Shown here piece by piece: positions 2,941 to 61,389 of a stretch of DNA of 64,000 nucleotides. The stretch comes from a virus, in IMG/VR virus record IMGVR_UViG_3300035698_018106, positions 38,717 through 102,716 of that record; one strand, 5' to 3'. Made by a program: the position numbers and the translations under genes. Under the pieces are notes generated by a model. The model was not told the origin of the DNA. It ran no database searches and saw only the letters and a program-made list of their open reading frames with translations. Each line of letters starts with the position of its first letter. The stretch's first letter is position 1.

Positions 2941-4017
2941 ATGATAAAAAATATACATACAGGAGAAGAATTTCCAGTAGAATGGACTTTAGATAAAACT
3001 GCAAATTTAAATCCAACCGATCTGACATACCATAATCTAATGGTAACTATATTAAAAGAAGGTTTATGGAAAGAAAATAGAACAGGTGTTAAAACACTTT
3101 CTATATTTGGCCCTCAAGTTAAATTTTCAAATGTAGGAGAAAGATTTCCATTACTTACAACTAAGAAAATATTTACTAAAGGGGTTATTGGGGAATTACT
3201 TTGGTTCTTAGAAGGATCTACTGATAAAAATAGATTAAGAGATCATTATGGTACTAAAATTTGGGAAGAATGGAATGGTCCAAATCCAAAATTTGATGGA
3301 GATATGGGACCTATTTATGGTAACCAATGGGTAAATTGGACGTATAATCATATTTATGATGAAGGAGAAGAAGTTGAATTGGAAGGTGAAGATGGTTTTA
3401 TTGTTTCAGAAAAGAGATCAATTAATCAATTACAAGGCATAATCGATACTCTTAAGACTAACCCAGATGATAGAAGAATGATTGTTTCCTGTTGGCATCC
3501 AGAGCAACTCAAAGATATGGCTTTACCTCCATGTCATTGGTCTTTCCAATTTTATACTAACGAATTATTAATAGATGAGAGATTTAGATTGTGGTTTGAT
3601 GAGAACAAACCTAATCGTGATGTTGTTGATTATTGGGATGGATTAAGTAAAGTAGAAAAACATATAATGTTAGATGAAGCAGGTATAAAGAAAAGAAGCC
3701 TAAGTCTTCTTTGGAATCAACGTAGTGTCGACACAGGTTTAGGACTACCTTTTAATATTACATCTTATGCTTTATTGTTAATGATGGTAGCTCAACAAAC
3801 CGATATGATAGCAGGTAATCTAATTGGTAATTTAGGAGACACTCATATATATGAGGATCATATGGATCAATTATGCAACCAGCTTACTAGAGAATCTACT
3901 ACTCTTCCCGTCATAAAAATCGATAAACAAAAAGATTTATGGAGCTATAAACCAGAACATTTCCATATAGAAAATTATAATCCACACCCTTCTATTAAAA
4001 TGAAAGTATCTGTTTAA
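2941..4017 (+). CDS. thyA: Thymidylate synthase (ThyA family) with a roughly 45-aa insertion
   Basis: Motifs RFPLLTTKK, GELLWFL, ALPPCH..FQFY, GLPFNITSYALL, HIYEDH and a C-terminal NYNPHP. Asn present in PFN(I)TSY, consistent with a dUMP substrate. Confidence 0.85.
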   Translation: MIKNIHTGEEFPVEWTLDKTANLNPTDLTYHNLMVTILKEGLWKENRTGVKTLSIFGPQVKFSNVGERFPLLTTKKIFTKGVIGELLWFLEGSTDKNRLRDHYGTKIWEEWNGPNPKFDGDMGPIYGNQWVNWTYNHIYDEGEEVELEGEDGFIVSEKRSINQLQGIIDTLKTNPDDRRMIVSCWHPEQLKDMALPPCHWSFQFYTNELLIDERFRLWFDENKPNRDVVDYWDGLSKVEKHIMLDEAGIKKRSLSLLWNQRSVDTGLGLPFNITSYALLLMMVAQQTDMIAGNLIGNLGDTHIYEDHMDQLCNQLTRESTTLPVIKIDKQKDLWSYKPEHFHIENYNPHPSIKMKVSV

Positions 4018-4061
4018 ATTAGTAAAAGTTAAAAGCACGTCCTAGAATATATAAAATAAAA

Positions 4062-4805
4062 ATGGATGTTATTTATTTAATAGAAGATGAAATTTCAGGA
4101 TTAAAATATTTGGGGTCTAAGAAAAATTGGCAAGGGGAAAATAGCTATTGGGGTTCGCCCTCTTGTAAAAACAAAAATAGAAAAAAATATAAATTACAAC
4201 AAGACTGGAAAAATCATTTTAAAGAGCATAAAGATAGCTTTAAATTTAATATATTAAAACATTTTGAAAAAATATCCATAAAAAAATTATTATTAGAAGA
4301 AAAAAAGCTACAACTAGAATATGATGTTTTAAATAGAAATGATTTCATCAATGCCGGATTAGCCGGAGGACATGGATTTATGGGAGAAGGTGAAGAAAAT
4401 CCGGTGTTTGGAAAAAAACATAGAAAAGATTCCATAAATAAAATGTCTATAAAGCAAAAAGAAAATGGTAAAAAATTATCTAAATTATATAAAGGGAAAA
4501 CATATGAAGAAAGATGGGGGGATGAAAAAGCTAAAATAGCAAGAAAAAAATTATCTGAGCATTCTAAAAACCGAACAGGAGATAAAAATTCTTTTTTTGG
4601 AAATAACCACAGTGAAAAAACTATACAACAAATAAAAAATAAGCAGAGGGGAAATAAACCTATTAATACTAAAAAGGTTTACATTGAAGGAAATATTTAT
4701 AACGGACTTAATGATGCATATATTGCAACTAATGTAAAGCCTACAACTATATGGTATAGGATTCATTCAAAAAATAAAAAATTCAAAGAATATAAATATA
4801 TTTGA
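4062..4805 (+). CDS. GIY-YIG homing endonuclease, I-TevI-like
   Basis: N-terminal VIYLIEDEISGLKYLGS (GIY...YIG). DWKNHFKEHKD resembles I-TevI RWKRHFKDLEKG. Two NUMOD3-like repeats (NPVFGKKHRKDSINKMS and NSFFGNNHSEKTIQQIKNK). C-terminal helix-turn-helix-like segment. Confidence 0.85.
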   Translation: MDVIYLIEDEISGLKYLGSKKNWQGENSYWGSPSCKNKNRKKYKLQQDWKNHFKEHKDSFKFNILKHFEKISIKKLLLEEKKLQLEYDVLNRNDFINAGLAGGHGFMGEGEENPVFGKKHRKDSINKMSIKQKENGKKLSKLYKGKTYEERWGDEKAKIARKKLSEHSKNRTGDKNSFFGNNHSEKTIQQIKNKQRGNKPINTKKVYIEGNIYNGLNDAYIATNVKPTTIWYRIHSKNKKFKEYKYI

Positions 4806-5111: not shown

Positions 5112-5297
5112 ATGTATAATATTGAATGGTTAAATACTTTTTTCATATATGGATCATATGTTATTGGATTAATAATAGTTGTATTAGTTTTCAAATTATC
5201 AATAAAATTAAATAAAGATATAAAAAAACTCGATAAATCATCTAAAGAAAATATGATTAAATATATGAGACAAACATCTAAATATAATAAAAAATGA
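5112..5297 (+). CDS. Small membrane protein
   Basis: 61 aa with one hydrophobic helix. Confidence 0.3.
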   Translation: MYNIEWLNTFFIYGSYVIGLIIVVLVFKLSIKLNKDIKKLDKSSKENMIKYMRQTSKYNKK

Positions 5298-5539
5298 AAG
5301 TAGAATTACATATACTTAATAATGAAAAGTCTAGTGGCGAAAAAGTAGAAGAATATAGTCCGTATTCAAGACGCAAAAGTTATAAAACTGATGATAATTT
5401 CTTAGATGATGATATTATATCATCTCCGATAAGTCATAAATTAGATAGATTATTACTAAATGATATACAAATCACATCTTTATATCAAATAGATAAAATA
5501 ATTAAACTATTAGAAAATGCAAAACCTTGTTTTAAATAA
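5294..5539 (+). CDS. Hypothetical protein
   Basis: ORF only. Confidence 0.3.
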   Translation: MKVELHILNNEKSSGEKVEEYSPYSRRKSYKTDDNFLDDDIISSPISHKLDRLLLNDIQITSLYQIDKIIKLLENAKPCFK

Positions 5540-6098
5540 AATGAATAAAATGAATAAAATAGAAGATTTAGTTAATATTATTACTATAGAAGGAGATCAT
5601 AAAACTATACAATATGTTGATTATGGAATAGATAAACAAGCAAATTCGCTAGGAGCATATGGAATTAGTTTGTTTGAAAAATATGTTGAAATTTCTAGAT
5701 TTAGTAAAGATATAAAAGATGAATCATATATTTCTGATTATATAGATAAAATTCAAGGTATCTTGAGTACTTATAACAATACTTTAGATATTAATGATAA
5801 GGTTAGACGTAATATATCTAAACTAATATCAAGTGCTTCAACAATAGCACATGAAGGTAGAATAGGTCCTGGCACCACAATACTAATAAATGAAAAGAAT
5901 TTTGAATCATATTCATTACACAATATAAAAAGAATTTTTAACGTGATATTCGTGGATGAATTAAATGATATAATAATTACTAGGAAAAATGGATTAGATC
6001 AACCAGGTATTATTTTAGTTAAAAATGATGAAAATTATATGTTTACCACATTAGGATTTTATCCAGATAAACAATTTATAAAAATTAATTTAAATTAA
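5517..6098 (+). CDS. Hypothetical protein
   Basis: 193 aa ORF. No recognised motifs. Confidence 0.4.
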   Translation: MQNLVLNKMNKMNKIEDLVNIITIEGDHKTIQYVDYGIDKQANSLGAYGISLFEKYVEISRFSKDIKDESYISDYIDKIQGILSTYNNTLDINDKVRRNISKLISSASTIAHEGRIGPGTTILINEKNFESYSLHNIKRIFNVIFVDELNDIIITRKNGLDQPGIILVKNDENYMFTTLGFYPDKQFIKINLN

Positions 6099-6100
6099 AT

Positions 6101-6925
6101 ATGGCAATAAAGAAGTTAAGTTTAACTATAAATGCATTTGATGCATCAGAGTTATTAGAACCTCTTATTACAGAGATTAGAGATCAAGTTGATCATGTGG
6201 CAGCAATTTACCAAAAACTTTCATATTGGCAAAATCCCATGGATCGAGTTGATATGGATGAACTTCATAGATTAAAAAAGATTGGTTTAATAGATGAACT
6301 TATTGAATTTAAACCTAATTTTGCTAAATATTCTAGAGAACAAGAATGTGAGAAGCGAAATATGGGTATTGATCTAATGAAACAAAACGGATCATCACAT
6401 ATACTAAATATTGATTCTGATGAATTTTATAATGCCGATCAATTTAGATATGCAAAAGATAAAATTAATAAAATGGGATATAACGTAACATATTGGTCAT
6501 ATGTTAACTATTATAGAGATTTTGATCATTATCTTGTATATCCATTTAGACCATTTGTTCAAGGTATTCATTCTACATTCTTTAAGTATACATATCAAGG
6601 TCCGGCTCCTGGTCCTACTGATCCAACAAGACGAATTAATAATCCTTCTGGTTTAGGACAATATATTTTTGAGGATAATGAAATTAGAATGGCTCATGGC
6701 GCTTGGATTAGAAAGGACATTAGGAAAAAACTAGTTAACTGGAGTGCTAAAGATCATTTCAAAAAAGAGCTAATTGATGCGGCTGTAGAAAGATGGGAAA
6801 ATTGGAAAGAAGGAGATAATGCAGTTATGTTATTTAATACTCCTGAAAATCAAGTAAGAGTTAACAAATTAGAAACTAGAATTCATGATTTTGAAGTACC
6901 ATGGAATAAAAAAGGAGAATCTTAA
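6101..6925 (+). CDS. Hypothetical protein, possibly a DxD glycosyltransferase-like enzyme
   Basis: 274 aa with an ILNIDSDEF (DxD-like) segment. The assignment is weak. Confidence 0.35.
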   Translation: MAIKKLSLTINAFDASELLEPLITEIRDQVDHVAAIYQKLSYWQNPMDRVDMDELHRLKKIGLIDELIEFKPNFAKYSREQECEKRNMGIDLMKQNGSSHILNIDSDEFYNADQFRYAKDKINKMGYNVTYWSYVNYYRDFDHYLVYPFRPFVQGIHSTFFKYTYQGPAPGPTDPTRRINNPSGLGQYIFEDNEIRMAHGAWIRKDIRKKLVNWSAKDHFKKELIDAAVERWENWKEGDNAVMLFNTPENQVRVNKLETRIHDFEVPWNKKGES

Positions 6926-11708: not shown

Positions 11709-11752
11709 TTAATGTTTATTTTATATATTCACTATTTAAATATTATATCACT

Positions 11753-16707: not shown

Positions 16708-17079
16708 TTAGTCTTTTTTGAAAAATTCATAAATATTAGATATTAAATAAAAAGACGCTATACCTACAGTAGTAACTCCTAGGAAATTCCATGTAGTATC
16801 AAAAACTGTTTTTAATCCATATCCAAAACTTAAAGAATATATTGATAATCCAATAAGTGTTAATATTAATTCTACATTGTTTTTAAAATTAGTAACTTTA
16901 ATATCTATTGGATTTTCTTGTATATTCTGACCATCTAGTGCATCTAGTGGATGGTTAGTTATTTTATTTAAAACAGCTTCTCTTATTTCTCGTTCAGGAA
17001 TTGGAACTCCATCTTTAACAGCATTTAATCTATTAGCAAGCGCATCATTTTTTATCATCCTCATTCTTTTTAGTAGCAT
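16708..17079 (-). CDS. Membrane protein
   Basis: Two C-terminal transmembrane helices. Confidence 0.35.
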   Translation of the reverse strand: MLLKRMRMIKNDALANRLNAVKDGVPIPEREIREAVLNKITNHPLDALDGQNIQENPIDIKVTNFKNNVELILTLIGLSIYSLSFGYGLKTVFDTTWNFLGVTTVGIASFYLISNIYEFFKKD

Positions 17080-17524
17080 CTAGCTTCATAGATTGTCCTT
17101 TTGGAGATTTATCACTTTCTTTTTTTGTATCATTTTCTGATTCATTATCTCCTTTAGGTTCTTTGCTTTCAGCTGGTGTTTCTTCTTTATTATTTTTAGG
17201 AGATTTTGGGTCTGGGGATTCAGTTTCTGATGTTTTTATTTCACCAAACATTCCAGGTTTGAAGTCTTTAACTGATTTAACATCGGTTTGTAAATCATAT
17301 CCTGGTTTGAAAGAAGAACCTTCACCTTTAACTTCAATTTTAACTTCAGTTTTTCCTTTTTGATATTCCTTTTTTAACCAATCAAAACTTTTTCTGGTAG
17401 CGTCATCTGGTATAAGTATACCATCTTTTTCACTTCCACTAAGAAATCCTTTATCAGTATTTCCTTCCGCTTCTTCATGAAGTTTATTAATATAATCGTT
17501 CGCGTTAAAATTTCCTGCTTTCAT
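17045..17524 (-). CDS. Low-complexity K/E/S-rich protein
   Basis: 159 aa with a charged low-complexity C-terminus. Confidence 0.35.
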   Translation of the reverse strand: MKAGNFNANDYINKLHEEAEGNTDKGFLSGSEKDGILIPDDATRKSFDWLKKEYQKGKTEVKIEVKGEGSSFKPGYDLQTDVKSVKDFKPGMFGEIKTSETESPDPKSPKNNKEETPAESKEPKGDNESENDTKKESDKSPKGQSMKLDATKKNEDDKK

Positions 17525-17719
17525 AATATGATTTTATTTTATATATTTAAAAAATTGGCTCACACTAAGGCAGTGAGCCATTCTCCAGGAAATATTAACC
17601 TCTTAGGCTGCCATTTCCATTTCACTTAATTTGCCATTTAAAGCAGTTTTACAAAGTTAATCACTAATATATTCAATATCCGGTCAATACCAGGTCAGGC
17701 CCATATGTTGAAAAAATAA

Positions 17720-17760
17720 TGGTGGACCTGGGCGGAGTCGAACCGCCGTGTCGCATACTT
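17720..17760 (-). other. Truncated tRNA 3' end (T-arm, 3' acceptor strand, discriminator and CCA) with no matching 5' half
   Basis: The minus strand reads GGCGGTTCGACTCCGCCCAGGTCCACCA. No GGACCTG 5' acceptor strand within 100 nt. Lies in a GC-richer island. Confidence 0.55.
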
Positions 17761-17923
17761 ATTCTACAGCTATCTTGTCAACTTGTTAACAAGAATACTT
17801 TGTATTTTTATCTAATTATATATTCAATTATGTTTTTTATGTTTATGTATATAATATAATACATAATTGAAATTTGGTTATTAATAATGTGTTAAAATTA
17901 TATAACATGTTTGTTAAGAATGT

Positions 17924-19723
17924 TTAAAGGTCTACAGATGTATCTTCATCTCCTAATCCTAAATCTTCTCCACCATCATCTCCAAAGTCTCCACCACCAA
18001 CATCTCCAAAGTCTCCACCACCTCCTCCAAAATCTCCACCAGCTCCGCCGGCTCCATCACCAGCTGGGGCAGCACCACCTTTGGCTGCATTTAATCTGGC
18101 ATAAGCAGCCATTAATTTCTGTATTTCTATTTGTCGTGACTTGCGATATTTTTCATTAATTTTAATATCAATATCAGACATTTGCATATATTTCTCAACT
18201 AGAAATTTTGGATCAAAATAAGGTACATCTACTGGAGTTCCATCAGGACCTACACTAGGATGAGTAATGCCAGATAAGGTAGATACAAGTGCTGCCCCAG
18301 CAGAAGCAACTTCTCTTTCTTTTGCAACAGTAAATAAATTTTCTTCATTAAATAATAGTCCTATAGATCCTTTTAATTTTTTATCATTTTGAAATTCTGG
18401 ATGTTTAAGAACAAACTGATACCATAGAGGTTTTAAAAGTATATCTTTGTATATACTTCTAACTCTGTTAATAAAGTATGAGAATCTCATTTCTTCTCTA
18501 GCTATACCATCCCCACCGGAAGACCAATTCCCACCTTCGGCACCTCCACCACCTGAACCACCTGATTCAGCAAAAGAACTAAATCTACTTTCTGGGACTT
18601 TAGATTCAATTATAAATCGTAACCAAAAATATTTAAGAGATTCAGTATCTGACATATCATATCCTTCTGGTTTAAATGAATCAATCACTGTTTCCATTCC
18701 ATCTTTAGAAGGAATTATATAAGTTTTTCCAAAAGAAAAATTAGGTTGCCCATTAACAGTAACTTCTCCAGAATCATCAGTGATATTAATATCTTCTTTA
18801 TACATACCTCTTAATTCAGCAAGTCTAGTACGAGCCTTTGCTTCAGATTGAGATCCAATTGGAACTACAATTTTCATTCTATATTGAGCATTAATAACAT
18901 TCCATATAACTCTAGAATTTTCTAATGTTCTAAGCATATTAAATGATCTAACTAGTCTTTCTACATATGATAATCTGGATATAAAATTAGTTCTTGCCCA
19001 TGACATATAAATTAAATTAGCATCTAATAATTCTCTTTCTCTTTCAGAATCTCCTCTATATTGTACCCACACTTTATATTCATTACCTGCATCGTCTTTT
19101 TTAAGTTCAGGTTCTAATGAAATTGGATCTAATTCTTTAAAACCGATTACATTTTCTGCATCTCCTTTATCATTCTGATCATATATAATTTCAAATGATA
19201 AAAAACCATCAATTAATAATTTTTTAATATAATGCCATGCATCATGACTTCCATTAAATCCAAAAGCATAATAAATCTTTTTAAATGCTGAGTTTAGATC
19301 ATCAATTACTTCTTTTGCTTTATCTTCTTTTAAAACAGATTTAAGAATTCTAGTATTAGGATATGCAAAATATCCATTATCATCATTAATAATAGTTTCA
19401 TCAGCAATTACTTCTAAAACATGTTCAATTTCACCATTCATTGCAAATCGTCTAAGGAAATCTCTTCTTGTTGGATATTCTTTATCATAAAACGCGATAA
19501 ATTCCTTTTGACCTATATCTGATCCAGAGAAAATATGTGATTGACCATAAAGGTTATACATATTATCCTCAGTTGCTTCAGTAATACCAACAGCTCTAGA
19601 TTGTTTGATGAGTTTATCATCCCATTTCATTCCAATTGCTGATAAATATCTTATATTTTTTTGTATTTTAGAGATTATACCAGATGGTCTACCATCCATA
19701 GTTCTCAAAGTAAATCCTGCCAT
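17924..19723 (-). CDS. Portal protein, T4 gp20-like
   Basis: Stretches resembling gp20 (DFLRRFAMNGEIEHVLEVIADETIINDDNG, GSHDAWHYIKKLLIDGF, FKELDPISLEP). Gly/Asp-rich acidic C-terminal tail. Confidence 0.55.
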   Translation of the reverse strand: MAGFTLRTMDGRPSGIISKIQKNIRYLSAIGMKWDDKLIKQSRAVGITEATEDNMYNLYGQSHIFSGSDIGQKEFIAFYDKEYPTRRDFLRRFAMNGEIEHVLEVIADETIINDDNGYFAYPNTRILKSVLKEDKAKEVIDDLNSAFKKIYYAFGFNGSHDAWHYIKKLLIDGFLSFEIIYDQNDKGDAENVIGFKELDPISLEPELKKDDAGNEYKVWVQYRGDSERERELLDANLIYMSWARTNFISRLSYVERLVRSFNMLRTLENSRVIWNVINAQYRMKIVVPIGSQSEAKARTRLAELRGMYKEDINITDDSGEVTVNGQPNFSFGKTYIIPSKDGMETVIDSFKPEGYDMSDTESLKYFWLRFIIESKVPESRFSSFAESGGSGGGGAEGGNWSSGGDGIAREEMRFSYFINRVRSIYKDILLKPLWYQFVLKHPEFQNDKKLKGSIGLLFNEENLFTVAKEREVASAGAALVSTLSGITHPSVGPDGTPVDVPYFDPKFLVEKYMQMSDIDIKINEKYRKSRQIEIQKLMAAYARLNAAKGGAAPAGDGAGGAGGDFGGGGGDFGDVGGGDFGDDGGEDLGLGDEDTSVDL

Positions 19724-20692: not shown

Positions 20693-21319
20693 TTACATGT
20701 GTCTAGGTGGTTTTTCGTGCCAAAATCGGCCTGTTATTTTTTCTAATATATGTTCAGTAAACACAAAGAATTTAACTCCATTTTTTTCTGCCCAACCTTT
20801 AAGAGCAGCAAATTTTGCTTCATTAATAAGATATTCTTTTGCTGCATTATTGAAAGACCTTTGAATTTTTAAAGGTGCATCTCTATCAGGTGGTATAGGT
20901 TTAATTAATTTTTTAGCAGGTTTAATTTCAACAAACATTTTTTCAAATTCTCCTTCACCTCTATCTAATTCAAACCAAAAATCTGTGTTATAGTTTTTAA
21001 CTTCCCAATTGGCTGGATCATTTGGATTTAATCCAAGTTTTGAACATTCTTCTAATCTAGAAACTCTATCATAATAAGGGACTGTAACAGGTTCGGATGA
21101 CCATTTAGTTACAGATTTTGACATATCACAATATCTACAAAAGGAATATTCCCAAGCACTTCTGAATATAACTAATTCAGGATCGCCAATATATTTAGCT
21201 TTATTTTCTACTCTATAATAGCCTTGATGAGTAGTACCTTTTTTTAAACTTCCATTAGCATTATATTTATTTGCAGATGGTTTGTGCCAGTTTTTATAGC
21301 TAGAATTGTGATCAGACAT
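20693..21319 (-). CDS. Hypothetical protein
   Basis: 208 aa ORF. Confidence 0.4.
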   Translation of the reverse strand: MSDHNSSYKNWHKPSANKYNANGSLKKGTTHQGYYRVENKAKYIGDPELVIFRSAWEYSFCRYCDMSKSVTKWSSEPVTVPYYDRVSRLEECSKLGLNPNDPANWEVKNYNTDFWFELDRGEGEFEKMFVEIKPAKKLIKPIPPDRDAPLKIQRSFNNAAKEYLINEAKFAALKGWAEKNGVKFFVFTEHILEKITGRFWHEKPPRHM

Positions 21320-36317: not shown

Positions 36318-36338
36318 TATACTATTTTATTTTATATA

Positions 36339-36812
36339 TTAAAATAGTTTTTTTGTCTTTATTCTATTTTCCATTTTATTTTTTGCAACAAAATCTCTTA
36401 ATACTAATTCCTGATCTAATACACCTATACCCTTATATAATTGATCATAATTAAGTTGGAAACATTCAGCGAAACTTATAAATATTTCAACCGGACTATA
36501 TTCACCGGTTCCACAACGTTCCTTGAAATAATAATACATATTTATCATATCTGTTTTATCAACCCTTTTTGGATTCTTATACTTTTTATGATAAGGAGAA
36601 TTCTTAAATATTTCATAGATTTTTTCATTAAGAATATGTAAAGTTCTATGTTCTATTACATCTCCTAATTGATCATCATATAAACTAGATACTCTACTAT
36701 CTATTTTAATAGATTGAGTAAATTCTTGAAATTGCATTTCCCCTGAATTAAAGGAATTATTTATTATTTTATCTTCAGCCATATTATAATCTTCTTTATT
36801 GTTTAAATTCAT
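36339..36812 (-). CDS. Hypothetical protein
   Basis: 157 aa ORF. Confidence 0.4.
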   Translation of the reverse strand: MNLNNKEDYNMAEDKIINNSFNSGEMQFQEFTQSIKIDSRVSSLYDDQLGDVIEHRTLHILNEKIYEIFKNSPYHKKYKNPKRVDKTDMINMYYYFKERCGTGEYSPVEIFISFAECFQLNYDQLYKGIGVLDQELVLRDFVAKNKMENRIKTKKLF

Positions 36813-41654: not shown

Positions 41655-41815
41655 ATTTATTTTTATTTTATATATTTAAATGTTCCACTCATAATAATCC
41701 CAGACAGATGGATCATCTCTAAATATATCTTTCTGACGAGTGGTGCAATCTTCTAACAATATCCCTTTTTTATCTAGGAATTCTTTAATTAAATTTGATT
41801 TAAACATAATATCTA

Positions 41816-51063: not shown

Positions 51064-51281
51064 TTTTTATTTTTTAATTGATTTTTACTCTGGTAATTCT
51101 GCAACAGTTATTAAATATAGATCTTTATATTTTAGATATACTTTTGATGTTATAATATAACATGTTGATTCATCTAGCATTATAAACTCTCCTTAAGATA
51201 AAACAAGGTCTTGTTTAGTGATAAATAACGTTTTATCGTCTGGTAATAATTGTACTTGTGTCATAATTTTTGATTTAATTA

Positions 51282-51458
51282 TTAAATAGTATAAGGATAT
51301 CTAACACCATATGTAGCAGTTGCCCCACATGAATTACAAGAATGTTCATATGATGGTGGGTTTGTTTGATTAACTATTCCATTAGGCCTCATCCATCCAT
51401 TGTTACATGTTGGACATTTTTCATCTGCTTGTTTTGCTTGTACTTCTCTAATTTCCAT
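51282..51458 (-). CDS. Possible small zinc-ribbon ORF (58 aa), absent from the ORF track
   Basis: MEIREVQAKQADEKCPTCNNGW...CNSCGATATYG. Two CxxC pairs. Confidence 0.3.
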   Translation of the reverse strand: MEIREVQAKQADEKCPTCNNGWMRPNGIVNQTNPPSYEHSCNSCGATATYGVRYPYTI

Positions 51459-51478
51459 TATTTTATTTTTTATTAAAT

Positions 51479-58133: not shown

Positions 58134-59231
58134 TTATTCATCATGTTTTAGAATAAATTTATTAGATATTACTTTAAATGATAATCTTCCTTGATAATCA
58201 TCTATTGGTCTTGTATCTGGAAATATTTCAGATTCAGCAACAAAAACAATACCTTCTCTTGCAGTATCTCGTAAAGCTGACCTCCCATCTGCTAATTTTA
58301 TTAATTCATCAATTGTATCAGGAAGGGTCATATCTTTTTCTATTACTGGAACAGTTTTTAATCCCATAGATACACAGGCATCATCAAATTGCTCCCACGG
58401 GAGAAATTGGTATTTAAGAGGATCAAACATTCTAAATAACCTAATAGTTTGTCCTTTAATTTTATATTTATTTGATTGGATACCTTCACCTATTAATTCT
58501 CCTTGTAAAGTTAATGCTTTCAATCCATGTTCTTTCATATAGATACGCATCTCTTTTTCAATATTTAAAACTCTAGCAACTTTCCAAAGTGAATTACCTT
58601 CACTTTCTAATAATTCTAGGTTTCTAGAGCTTACTCCAAAGATATCATCATATATAGCATATGAACAAGATGAACCATCTAATTTTTCAGTAGCTACCCA
58701 AGTATAATTATCATGATAATTTTTGTAGCTATCTATTAAATTTTGGATTCTGTTTTCATCTGTTTTAATAGAATGTGATGGGAAATTACCTTTAGCTATT
58801 CCATCTAAACAAGCAGGTATAGGTGGATCATATTTTATAATACCAAGAGTATCTGTAACATCTGCGCCAACTGGTTCTATAAAACCAATTTCTGGATTTA
58901 TTTCAACTGCTAGCCCTGATGGTGTATCTAAAAAGCTAACAGACATTGGTAAAATACTCAATGGGAATGTAATTCCTTGACTAATAACTCCTCTTAATTT
59001 AGTTGTTTTAATTCTATATTTTCTAGGAGCTAAAAATTCAAATTCTGGACGTTGCGGCATAAGTGAATCAATTTCACAATATATACCTAAATCTCCTTCT
59101 TTAAAATCTCCTTTTTTAATAACGACATTCCATCCTCTGATTGTACATTGCTCTATATTATCAGCACCTGTAATTGGTCTAATATTAGTAACTTTTTCAA
59201 TTGTCGCTAGTTTTCTTTTAATTTCTGACAT
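58134..59231 (-). CDS. ATP-dependent RNA ligase (KxDG nucleotidyltransferase) with an N-terminal OB, tRNA-binding-like domain
   Basis: ATEKLDGSS motif I. The N-terminal IRPITGADNIEQCTIRGWNVVIKKGDFKEGDLG fits a tRNA-binding OB-fold pattern. Confidence 0.5.
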   Translation of the reverse strand: MSEIKRKLATIEKVTNIRPITGADNIEQCTIRGWNVVIKKGDFKEGDLGIYCEIDSLMPQRPEFEFLAPRKYRIKTTKLRGVISQGITFPLSILPMSVSFLDTPSGLAVEINPEIGFIEPVGADVTDTLGIIKYDPPIPACLDGIAKGNFPSHSIKTDENRIQNLIDSYKNYHDNYTWVATEKLDGSSCSYAIYDDIFGVSSRNLELLESEGNSLWKVARVLNIEKEMRIYMKEHGLKALTLQGELIGEGIQSNKYKIKGQTIRLFRMFDPLKYQFLPWEQFDDACVSMGLKTVPVIEKDMTLPDTIDELIKLADGRSALRDTAREGIVFVAESEIFPDTRPIDDYQGRLSFKVISNKFILKHDE

Positions 59232-60168: not shown

Positions 60169-61389
60169 TTAAATATTAATATTTGAAACATAATTAAATG
60201 TATCTGTTTTAGATTTCCAATCAAATACATTTTCTAGTGCAGCTTTTCTAATTTTCTCTAATATTTGACCAATTTTTGGCAGATCTTTTTTAGATGAAAT
60301 ACCAAAAAGTTCCATTATTTCGTCTCCATTTATAAGAATATCAGAATTAGAAGATGGAATTTTACCTGCATTCATATCTAAAATAATATTTGCCATATCT
60401 GTTGGTAATAATACAACATTAGACATTATAGGGAGCTTAGACATTGTTTGAAGAGTTAAATACATTTGATCTGTTTCTCCTAAATTATCCCAATCTCTTA
60501 AAATATTATCTAATTTAAGAATTGCCGTTCCAACTTTTTGTTTATCAGATCCTTTAATTTTTTTCATGTAAAAAGTATAAGGATCAACACCTCCAACTAA
60601 GCCCATCATATAATAAAAAGATATTGGATCTAGATCATCAAAGCCTTTATCATAATGAAGCATTTTTTTATTAAATAATGCTTCATCAGCTCCTGTTTCA
60701 TGAAGAAGATTAATAGCCATTTGAGTACTACCACCTTTATTTAGAATTTTTTGAAATTCATCATAGATTCGTTCGCCGGCGATCTCTTTAATAAGATGAG
60801 AATTCTTTTTCATTAAATCCATAGTACCTTTTTCGATATTGAATCTAAATCTGGCGGCAAATTGGATGCCTCTTAAAATTCTTAAAGGATCCTCTATAAA
60901 TGCATTCTTATCTGTTGCTTTAAGTAATCTATTATGCAAATCTTTTAGTCCATTAAAAGGGTCTAGTAATTCATCTGACATTATATTAACAGCCATTGAG
61001 TTAAGAGTAAAATCTCTTCTTTTTAAATCTCCATGAACATCAACTCCATCTGTAACTACTTCAAAACCTTTATGTCCTGACCCTATTTTTCTATCTTCTC
61101 TAGGTACAGCTACATCATAATCTTCACCAACATGACCTTTAGGCTTAAATTTAATAACTGAGAATGATTCACCTTCTACATTAGCTCTTCCATATTCTCT
61201 GAGAATTTTAAGAATACCAGATACAGATAATCCATCTACGATAAGATCTATATCTTTCATAGGTTTTTCTAAATATGCATCACGAACACTACCTCCTACC
61301 ACATATATTTCTGCGTTAGAAGCCATTTTTTGAATCCATATATGTTTTCTTAGATTTTCTGTTATTTGTTTTAAACTTTCAGGTATCAT
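60169..61389 (-). CDS. cca: tRNA nucleotidyltransferase (CCA-adding enzyme or poly(A) polymerase family)
   Basis: GGSVRD...DIDL head motif, RRDFTLNSMA and EDPLRILRGIQFAARF. Confidence 0.8.
   Translation of the reverse strand: MIPESLKQITENLRKHIWIQKMASNAEIYVVGGSVRDAYLEKPMKDIDLIVDGLSVSGILKILREYGRANVEGESFSVIKFKPKGHVGEDYDVAVPREDRKIGSGHKGFEVVTDGVDVHGDLKRRDFTLNSMAVNIMSDELLDPFNGLKDLHNRLLKATDKNAFIEDPLRILRGIQFAARFRFNIEKGTMDLMKKNSHLIKEIAGERIYDEFQKILNKGGSTQMAINLLHETGADEALFNKKMLHYDKGFDDLDPISFYYMMGLVGGVDPYTFYMKKIKGSDKQKVGTAILKLDNILRDWDNLGETDQMYLTLQTMSKLPIMSNVVLLPTDMANIILDMNAGKIPSSNSDILINGDEIMELFGISSKKDLPKIGQILEKIRKAALENVFDWKSKTDTFNYVSNINI

Follow-up and report, generated by a model that had tools for sequence, protein, structure and literature searches.

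A predicted circularly permuted, two-piece tmRNA gene beside the portal of a large T4-like phage

The locus

The DNA analysed here, called the window below, is a stretch of 64,000 nucleotides (64 kb) from an IMG/VR virus record. With the standard genetic code it contains 84 ORFs at a coding density of 91.6%, and the stop codons used are TAA (69), TGA (9) and TAG (6). The interval from 17525 to 17923, 399 nt in length, is among the two largest non-coding gaps of the window. As the first-pass annotation had stated, it has the portal gene on one side and the next gene, a 159-aa ORF, on the other, and it is free of ORFs, none of 60 aa or more being found within it. All genes around the interval are on the minus strand. 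The flanking features are the following.

17924–19723, minus strand: T4-type portal gene (Pfam Portal_T4, 163 bits)
17794–17923, minus strand: AT-rich spacer from the portal stop codon to the RNA described below, presumed promoter region
17531–17546, minus strand: recurrent promoter-like motif ATATATAAAATAAAAT, just upstream of the ATG at 17524
17045–17524, minus strand: 159-aa ORF, with its ATG at 17524

The interval had been described as a GC-rich island of 400 bp. A core of 241 nt (17550–17790) indeed has 39.8% GC, which places it in the top 1.1% of windows of the same size, but the stated extent was exaggerated: the whole interval has 29.1% GC compared to 27.6% for the window, and the part from 17791 to 17923 only 14.3%. 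The perfect palindrome CTTGTTAACAAG is present at 17782–17793. A GC-rich hairpin with the arms TGGCTCAC and GTGAGCCA is present at 17556–17580, with a loop of 9 nt and not 10 as first given. On the minus strand the tRNA-like 3' end reported earlier was located as the 28-mer GGCGGTTCGACTCCGCCCAGGTCCACCA, running from 17747 to 17720.

Identity of the gene

A cmscan comparison of the 64-kb window with 4227 Rfam families gave a match to RF04321 (tmRNA_permuted) on the minus strand, 17783→17603, with 67 bits against a gathering score of 47 and an E-value of 1e-10, which on the scale of this search is far beyond chance. The match covers the full model, positions 1–213 of 213. RF04321 was the sole family that reached its gathering threshold in the whole window, and therefore no tRNA was called there; a canonical tRNA cloverleaf, with D-arm and anticodon arm in the standard order, was not found in the window either. 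The RF04321 alignment bears out the original reading of the T-arm, acceptor strand, discriminator and encoded CCA as tRNA-like. It contradicts the description of this element as a truncated tRNA, since over the full model the tRNA-like module is complete, with its halves in swapped order. The 5' half appeared to be lacking because the gene is circularly permuted and the 5' strand is placed downstream. Where no complementary 5' acceptor strand had been seen, GGGCCTG at 17702→17696 pairs with all seven bases of CAGGTCC.

By homology and predicted structure, the minus strand from 17794 to 17549 is a complete circularly permuted (two-piece) tmRNA gene, ssrA, and we consider it highly probable that it encodes a functional two-piece tmRNA. 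A complete tRNA-type gene in a covariance-model search was what the first-pass annotation had named as evidence against its own reading; such a gene was found in substance, the family being RF04321 and not tRNA. Its suggestion of a structured non-coding RNA was right in the broadest sense only. The apparent oddity is thereby resolved into an ordinary, complete gene.

ARAGORN called neither a tRNA nor a tmRNA in the window. Other copies escape it too, namely those of the close relatives L006, L011 and L012, described below, and of 4 of 34 sampled members of the wider family. In view of the Rfam match and the homologues, the negative result for the window copy is a false negative. Such genes are left unannotated because their halves are swapped and because ARAGORN misses the window copy and several relatives. 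The lineage-specific models RF01849, RF01850 and RF01851, which cover Alphaproteobacteria, some Betaproteobacteria and some Cyanobacteria, were merged into RF04321. None of the three reached threshold on the window RNA; the best lineage-specific model, beta_tmRNA, scored 38.8 bits against a gathering score of 84 and matched the tRNA domain only. The minimum free energy (MFE) fold of the window sequence alone recovered the T-arm, the acceptor stem between the two pieces and the terminator.

Anatomy of the RNA

The features of the RNA, all on the minus strand, are listed below.

17720–17794, minus strand: acceptor piece with 5' hairpin, P2 5' strand, T-arm, 3' acceptor strand, discriminator and CCA (RF04321 and comparative structure)
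17782–17793, minus strand: 5' hairpin of the acceptor piece, formed by the palindrome CTTGTTAACAAG (hairpin at the same place in relatives)
17794–17773, minus strand: alternative longer hairpin UCUUGUUAA-CAAG-UUGACAAGA (MFE fold)
17731–17747, minus strand: T-arm GGCGG-UUCGACU-CCGCC (Rfam; three of five pairs compensatory across 10 clade copies)
17730–17724, minus strand: 3' acceptor strand CAGGUCC (Rfam alignment)
17723, minus strand: discriminator A (A73)
17722–17720, minus strand: encoded CCA
17703–17719, minus strand: intervening segment UUAUUUUUUCAACAUAU, 17 nt, expected to be removed in processing
17549–17702, minus strand: coding piece with 5' acceptor strand, D-loop-like segment, P2 3' strand, tag frame, stop-codon hairpin and terminator
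17702–17696, minus strand: 5' acceptor strand GGGCCUG, 17 nt after the CCA, giving G3·U70
17603–17635, minus strand: tag frame GGC AAA UUA AGU GAA AUG GAA AUG GCA GCC UAA
17549–17580, minus strand: intrinsic terminator UGGCUCAC-N9-GUGAGCCA, followed by AUUUUUU

The acceptor stem GGGCCUG/CAGGUCC consists of seven perfect pairs, with G3·U70 as the third pair, and is followed by a discriminator A. G3·U70 is an identity element for alanyl-tRNA synthetase. Together with A73 and CCA, it gives the window sequence the features expected for alanine identity, and charging with alanine is predicted. A search with the tRNA-like fragment, proposed earlier as a way to find the tRNA species, points to the same amino acid. 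The exact 28-mer occurs in 3 of 185,579 species-representative genomes, all of them MAGs. Two of these, from Patescibacteria, have it as the 3' half of a complete tRNA-Ala(CGC) gene starting with GGGCCUG, and in the third, unclassified MAG it lies within a tRNA-Ala match cut by the end of the locus. Alanine is the species that a tmRNA must mimic, so the match is read as shared identity: that the 28-mer is identical to the 3' half of tRNA-Ala(CGC) indicates an alanine identity of the predicted RNA. An inference from the 28-mer to a host or donor was rejected, the matches being tRNA-Ala genes that speak for alanine identity and not for a host.

The tag is GKLSEMEMAA, encoded by 10 codons with UAA as stop, and UUUAAAU stands directly before it. 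The resume codon of the window copy (GGC) was assigned by homology to relatives because ARAGORN does not call this copy. Downstream of the tag, the GC-rich hairpin is followed by AUUUUUU on the minus strand and is therefore read as an intrinsic terminator. It was missed by a simple terminator scan because that scan allows loops of at most 8 nt and the loop has 9. The hairpin and the palindrome, listed earlier as separate curiosities, are thus the terminator and the 5' hairpin of one gene.

In the window, helix P2 is less well formed than in the relatives. Three of its 15 pairs are non-canonical in the Rfam alignment of the window and the helix is absent from the MFE fold, whereas in the comparative alignment described below helices 2–4 are 86–100% paired with compensatory changes. 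Inspection of the sequence shows that the stretch from P2 to the resume codon is too short for a canonical pseudoknot PK1. The model RF04321 does not include PK1 (PMC11915505). In the relatives, RNAalifold proposes a helix around the tag region (helix 7) instead of PK1; this helix is poorly paired in the window.

Conservation and covariation in related phages

The same tmRNA gene occurs in 11 related viral contigs, which have a portal that is 63–86% identical or a homologue of the 159-aa ORF. A portal protein search found 10 viral contigs with 78–86% identity and one with 47%. All close contigs that reach far enough carry the permuted tmRNA (Rfam scores of 54–69 bits and/or an ARAGORN call). 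The gene is also carried by three members that are more distant (portal identity 63–66%) and by two contigs sharing just the 159-aa ORF. Wherever the contig DNA includes the portal gene, the RNA is found a short way downstream of it. Aligned over almost the whole of its length, the window RNA shares 65–69% identity with its nearest relatives.

The stems of the RNA are maintained while their sequences change. The acceptor stem is found as GGGCCUG/CAGGUCC, GGGCCAU/AUGGUCC, GGGGAUG/CAUCUCC, GGGGCUG/CAGCUCC, GGGGUUG/CAGCUCC and GGGGCAU/AUGUUCC, and amid these compensatory changes G3·U70 is unchanged in 10 of 10 aligned copies. Every relative has a hairpin of other sequence at the place of the palindrome (GACG/CGTC, GACAC/GTGTC, GTCATG/CATGAC, ATCCC/GGGAT and AGTTT/AAACT). 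In the terminator, four of six pairs show compensatory changes among the relatives and all cells of the alignment are paired. The last tag codons and the stop codon sit within a small covarying hairpin.

Covariation was quantified on an alignment of seven copies from which the spacer between the pieces was removed. In these spliced copies 94.7% of cells are paired compared to 35–47% with slid partners, 22 pairs are changed on both sides compared to 2–5 with sliding, and in 500 shuffles the observed values were never reached; the pairing figures are inflated because the structure was derived from the same alignment. The tRNA-domain core of this alignment-derived structure coincides with the independent Rfam model. 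Across 10 copies, compensatory change is found in 25 of 42 pairs.

The tag frame aligns codon for codon as a conserved G…(A/E/K)MAA, in which the Ala codons differ synonymously between copies. Tags called by ARAGORN in the relatives are GELQTTMAMAA, GEQTKYAMAA, GVNKNEMAMAA, GENKTEMAMAA, GTYNEMKMAA and GEKQTQFAMAA. Nearly all copies keep the motif UAAA(U/C) ahead of the resume codon. In 11 of the 12 clade copies G1 and the stop codon lie about 97–105 nt apart (100 nt in the window; L004 left out). The intervening segment after the discriminator varies from 15 to 167 nt in the clade copies and is not conserved in sequence, as expected for a discarded piece. A fully encoded CCA is found in one of the 12 copies, that of the window.

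In the relatives further structured elements are inserted in the intervening segment; one of them, in L002, is tRNA-like. An Rfam search of the long spacer of L007 matched no family to the inserts.

The carrier phage

The deposited genomes nearest to the window by portal sequence are those of Lak megaphages (43%), LR756500 (462 kb, 39%) and other huge phages, compared to about 23% for ordinary T4-like phages. Other genes in the window encode a DNA polymerase B, a topoisomerase II, UvsX, a DnaB-like helicase and SbcCD-like nucleases, and further genes for a sigma factor, PhoH and thymidylate synthase complete a content typical of T4-like lytic phages. Judged by these sequence comparisons, the carrier is a large T4-like phage related to the Lak megaphages. 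Two genes for RNA maintenance enzymes are also found in the window.

60169–61389: CCA-adding enzyme (PolyA_pol, 84.5 bits, with an RNA-binding domain; PHROG tRNA nucleotidyltransferase, 7e-61)
58134–59231: RNA ligase

The CCA-adding enzyme and the RNA ligase fit a theme of tRNA and tmRNA maintenance, and they may matter for the relatives, whose genes have no encoded CCA. With the tmRNA they also fit the picture of large phages that maintain the host translation apparatus during infection. The gene described here adds a clade of large T4-like phages, with portals nearest to Lak, to the carriers of an own ribosome-rescue RNA.

Comparison with known tmRNAs

One-piece tmRNA genes are known from mycobacteriophages and phage G (PMC4131195), and tmRNAs and SmpB are documented in huge phages (PMC7162821). 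Two-piece tmRNAs made up 53 of 133 unique phage tmRNAs in one survey; the carriers include Pelagibacter phage Mosig, the OM43 phage Melnitz, pelagimyophages and cyanophages (PMC9004378). Phage-encoded two-piece tmRNA is thus already known and the window copy adds one more. The annotated SsrA of Mosig, the sequence of which we examined, is permuted, has the context UUUUUAAAU GGC GAA and encodes the 9-residue tag GEDNFALAA.

The genes of these marine T4-like phages are similar to that of the window in several respects. They have the same order of acceptor piece, short intervening segment and coding piece, they have G3·U70, translation resumes at UAAAU-GGC (Gly), and the tag has 9–11 residues ending in xAA. 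The carriers are likewise T4-like myoviruses with a low-GC genome. ARAGORN and Rfam class the relatives of the window in the same way as the two-piece genes of marine phages. Differences are that the tag of the window ends in …MAA and the marine phage tags in …LAA, and that the window gene directly follows the portal gene whereas the Mosig gene adjoins a late-transcription accessory gene. The portal of the window is closest to those of Lak and other huge phages (39–43%), not to Kyanoviridae. Unlike in the marine phages, a glutamine riboswitch was not detected in the window by the Rfam scan. Outside the T-arm the window RNA has no BLAST-detectable similarity to deposited phage genomes: blastn of the 261-nt RNA region against 50,697 phage records gave no match, and for two RNAs of the wider family similarity to the deposited phage records was confined to the T-arm.

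With the bacterial two-piece tmRNAs the window RNA shares the architecture of the tRNA-like domain, the kind of permutation and a presumed dependence on RNase P for processing. Its coding piece is much more compact (100 nt from G1 to the stop codon) and has no evident PK1.

The tmRNA of Lak-A1 (MK250016) is also phage-encoded, adjoins the portal gene on the same strand, has G3·U70 and has UUUAAAU before the resume codon. Its tag, DDEIDFRMAA, ends in …RMAA, and its CCA is not fully encoded, as in the relatives of the window. In contrast to the window RNA, it is a one-piece, unpermuted tmRNA (RF00023, 54 bits) of about 395 nt with the usual long pseudoknot region. It lies directly upstream of the portal gene, where the window gene lies downstream, and its resume codon is GAC. 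The window uses the standard genetic code, unlike Lak. A further phage-borne tRNA-like domain with alanine identity is the DS6A RNA, which consists of this domain (TLD) only; it has no tag reading frame (PMC4131195), whereas the window gene has a conserved one.

Prevalence and origin

Viral contigs were searched with a strict pattern of a T-arm, TCCAC, a spacer of 15–45 nt, GGG, 75–105 nt and Met-Ala-Ala-stop. It was found in 59 viral contigs, mostly with 26–37% GC, a minority of which belong to the phage clade of the window. The same pattern with Leu codons (…LAA) is present in at least 151 more. With at least 210 viral contigs carrying it, the permuted tmRNA architecture is therefore common in viral metagenomes, and tags ending in …MAA are a sizeable minority of such tags. 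The notion that …MAA is a peculiarity of the window clade was dropped in view of these 59 contigs. ARAGORN called 30 of 34 sampled MAA contigs, with tags such as GEQVELAMAA, GAQVEMAMAA and ANDNHYAMAA. The …MAA family is thus common in uncultivated viral contigs and without a BLAST-detectable counterpart in deposited phage genomes. The supplements of the tmRNA database paper contain no phage breakdown.

A glycine resume codon and a tag starting with GE could point to Bacteroidota. Capture of the gene from Bacteroidota followed by an independent permutation was considered on this basis, but the case is weakened by Mosig, which starts with UAAAU-GGC-GAA too. An independent origin of the window lineage is possible but unsupported, because Mosig has the same design. 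The tmRNA of the window lineage and the one-piece, portal-adjacent, …MAA tmRNA of Lak might descend from the same phage gene. If so, the ssrA permutation would have arisen, or the form of the gene would have been swapped, inside a phage lineage, and …MAA would be a phage-specific degron variant that is routed differently from the …LAA tag of the host. The variable intervening segment might in addition serve as a landing pad, with extra small RNAs freed by the same processing. Taken jointly, shared descent with Lak, an MAA degron and a spacer that acts as landing pad form a speculative and rather unlikely combination.

Proposed mechanism and alternatives

The established pathway of two-piece tmRNAs (Keiler, Shapiro and Williams 2000, as cited in PMC9004378 and PMC11915505) suggests how the window gene could work, and the transcription start, processing, charging, tagging and phage benefit proposed here are modelled on it. 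A precursor of about 245 nt would start in the AT-rich spacer after the portal gene and end at the intrinsic terminator (17549). In this precursor CAGGUCC would pair with GGGCCUG about 20 nt downstream and stack on the T-arm, which would complete the tRNA-like module. RNase P would cut 5' of G1 (17702) and the 17-nt spacer after the CCA would be trimmed. Two pieces would result, an acceptor RNA of about 75 nt and a coding RNA of about 150 nt, and pairing in the acceptor stem and P2 would keep them joined. AlaRS would charge the CCA end by recognition of G3·U70 and A73, and the charged RNA together with SmpB, presumably that of the host, would enter stalled ribosomes. Translation would resume at GGC (17635), append (A)GKLSEMEMAA and end at UAA, by which the ribosome is freed and the tagged product is marked for proteolysis. 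The likely benefit for the phage would be that ribosome recycling is kept up while mRNAs break down during infection.

SmpB is presumed to be provided by the host since none was found in the window. It is absent among the strong Pfam and PHROG matches of the 84 ORFs (best 25 of 38 and 63 families); this excludes a strong SmpB match but not a weaker one. The lack is not disqualifying, as most phage tmRNAs would depend on SmpB from the host and the window is just a part of the genome.

An RNA with an intact tRNA-like domain could also act as a decoy, titrating host SmpB, AlaRS or EF-Tu and thereby inhibiting host trans-translation. Such a role was proposed for the TLD-only RNA of DS6A, and a molecule of this kind inhibits tmRNA in E. 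coli (PMC4131195, PMC11915505). The lack of SmpB among the listed family matches of the window and the unusually compact coding piece, in which PK1 is not evident, would agree with it. However, the length of the tag, its C-terminal …MAA and the stop codon are conserved in the 12 clade copies and in 59 members of the wider family, the UAAA(U/C) context is kept in nearly all copies and synonymous variation occurs. A conserved tag frame counts against a pure decoy, which needs none, and we regard this role as improbable. Even less probable is that the gene, while working in the relatives, has recently been inactivated in the window and is a pseudogene there. That ARAGORN does not call it, that P2 has mismatches, that helix 7 enclosing the tag is poorly paired and that the RNA is just 65–69% identical to its nearest relatives could be taken as signs of decay. 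Yet the window copy retains an intact acceptor stem, T-arm, G3·U70, A73, CCA, tag frame with its stop codon, stop-codon hairpin and terminator, and its Rfam score of 67 bits equals that of L007–L009 and exceeds those of L006, L011 and L012.

The first-pass annotation had listed a decayed tRNA gene and an attP-like core kept from a temperate ancestor. Integration often takes place at the 3' ends of tmRNA and tRNA genes, and fragments of this kind can be present in phages (PMC4383910, PMC9004378). An unrelated viral contig, L003, has the identical 28-mer with no coding piece in about 300 nt downstream, so isolated fragments of such kind do exist. At the window locus, both readings are already refuted by the complete permuted gene: the "missing" half is found 17 nt downstream, the tmRNA parts are intact, the whole gene covaries in related phages and the tag frame is conserved. 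Nor does the fragment stand alone, being part of the complete gene. Against the attP core it further counts that no integrase is present among the strong Pfam and PHROG matches listed for the 84 ORFs (best 25 of 38 and 63 families) and that the genes are those expected of a lytic, T4-like phage; exact cellular matches of the 28-mer are confined to ordinary tRNA-Ala genes, found in three MAGs. The probability of a decayed tRNA gene or an attP core derived from a tRNA or tmRNA is thus very small here, and a functional two-piece tmRNA gene is the preferred reading.

Presumed promoter region and neighbouring motif

The AT-rich spacer between the portal gene and the two-piece tmRNA gene is presumed from its sequence to be the promoter region. 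A scan found sigma-70-like consensus sites at 17926→17897 and 17884→17856, and a degenerate copy of the recurrent gene-start motif of the window lies at about 17823–17803. In the relatives L004 and L028, close versions of this motif (ATATATAAAAAAAT and ATATATAAAGAAAT) stand directly before the 5' hairpin of the RNA.

On the other side of the RNA, the 159-aa ORF has no Pfam, PHROG or PDB sequence match. This ORF, which is syntenic, was considered as a divergent SmpB and rejected, since it has no family match, is acidic and has a tail of low complexity. The motif at 17531–17546 before this ORF lies outside the RNA and is where the next transcription unit begins. The recurrent motif has 13 matches in the window, compared to 5.1 ± 2.1 expected, mostly close upstream of start codons, and the relatives keep it downstream of the terminator.

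Other carriers of the tmRNA 3' half

The 28-mer formed by the T-arm, 3' acceptor strand, discriminator and CCA of the permuted tmRNA, which the first-pass annotation had read as a truncated tRNA 3' end, recurs in other settings. An identical copy is present in a second viral contig, L003:

1001-1028, minus strand, L003 (IMGVR_UViG_3300021963_006801): T-arm, acceptor strand and CCA

In L003 a ribosome-binding site and an ORF directly follow the 28-mer, neither a 5' acceptor strand nor a tag frame was found in the approximately 300 nt past it, and Rfam and ARAGORN call nothing. The 3' half in L003 is genuinely isolated, the type of object envisaged in that annotation. In two Patescibacteria MAG loci (L017 and L019), the tRNA-Ala(CGC) gene is identical to the window tmRNA both in the 28-nt 3' half and in the 7-nt 5' acceptor strand. 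The same 3' half occurs in the unclassified MAG locus L018, where the tRNA runs off the end of the locus and the 5' strand lies beyond view. One of the Patescibacteria MAG contigs is 326 kb in size.

Inserts in the intervening segments and a one-piece relative

The unrelated viral contig L002 (IMGVR_UViG_3300027747_001220) also encodes a permuted tmRNA, the 91-nt intervening segment of which holds a tRNA-like element that exceeds the Rfam gathering score and was not called by ARAGORN. From such a precursor an additional tRNA-shaped RNA would be set free. Within the clade of the window tmRNA, some members have insert-bearing intervening segments.

tRNA-like element and insert-bearing intervening segments
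L002 127-197, minus strand: tRNA-like element, Rfam tRNA 32.7 bits (gathering score 29)
L006 ~6124-6225: intervening segment with insert
L007 ~6214-6375: intervening segment with insert
L011 ~6155-6225: intervening segment with insert

An element of approximately 85 nt with the closing stem TCTACC…GGTAGA is common to L006 and L007, and a second element (CCAAT.GTGCT…) is shared by L007 and L011; in a search with the long intervening segment of L007, no Rfam family matched the inserts at E ≤ 1.

Prevotella phage Lak-A1 (L016, MK250016.1) has a standard one-piece tmRNA directly upstream of its portal gene, with two suppressor tRNAs nearby. ARAGORN made no call for this tmRNA, whose tag was read as DDEIDFRMAA.

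RNA genes of Lak-A1 (L016)
5244-5639: one-piece tmRNA, RF00023, 54 bits
2357-2431 and 3264-3336: tRNAs with anticodon CUA (amber suppressors)

Enzymes of RNA repair or maturation encoded by the phage

Two enzymes with RNA repair or maturation functions are encoded in the window:

60169-61389, minus strand: CCA-adding enzyme (tRNA nucleotidyltransferase); PolyA_pol, 84.5 bits, and PolyA_pol_RNAbd; phrog_2244, 7e-61
58134-59231, minus strand: RNA ligase, PHA02142 OB-fold domain

The tmRNA could be a substrate of both. CCA is not fully encoded in 11 of the 12 clade copies.

Promoter-like motif and neighbouring features

The motif ATATATAAAATAAAAT, with up to two mismatches allowed, occurs at 13 sites in the window against 5.1 ± 2.1 expected, and start codons lie a few bases downstream of most copies. 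It resembles the T4-late-type promoter (TATAAATA); transcripts initiated at this putative promoter would have very short leaders. The copy ahead of the 159-aa ORF is kept in relatives.

Example sites of ATATATAAAATAAAAT
4047-4062, plus strand
11713-11728, 17531-17546, 36324-36339 and 41660-41675, all minus strand

Other features of the window
17924-18090, minus strand: Gly/Asp-rich, low-complexity C-terminal tail of the portal protein, ~50 residues, …GGAAPAGDGAGGAGGDFGGGGGDFGDVGGGDFGDDGGEDLGLGDEDTSVDL
51064-51478: second large ORF-free gap, 415 nt
20693-21319, minus strand: protein with TnsA-like endonuclease N-terminal domain, 54 bits

GC content peaks locally at 51–57% over the stretch coding for the portal tail, and alignments with related portals end at about residue 547. 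The scan of the window placed no Rfam family in the ORF-free gap at the gathering threshold. The gene for the protein with the TnsA-like domain sits on the same strand as the portal gene, roughly 1 kb upstream and three ORFs away, and its product is kept in close relatives at 65–76% identity and in locus L055 at 50%.
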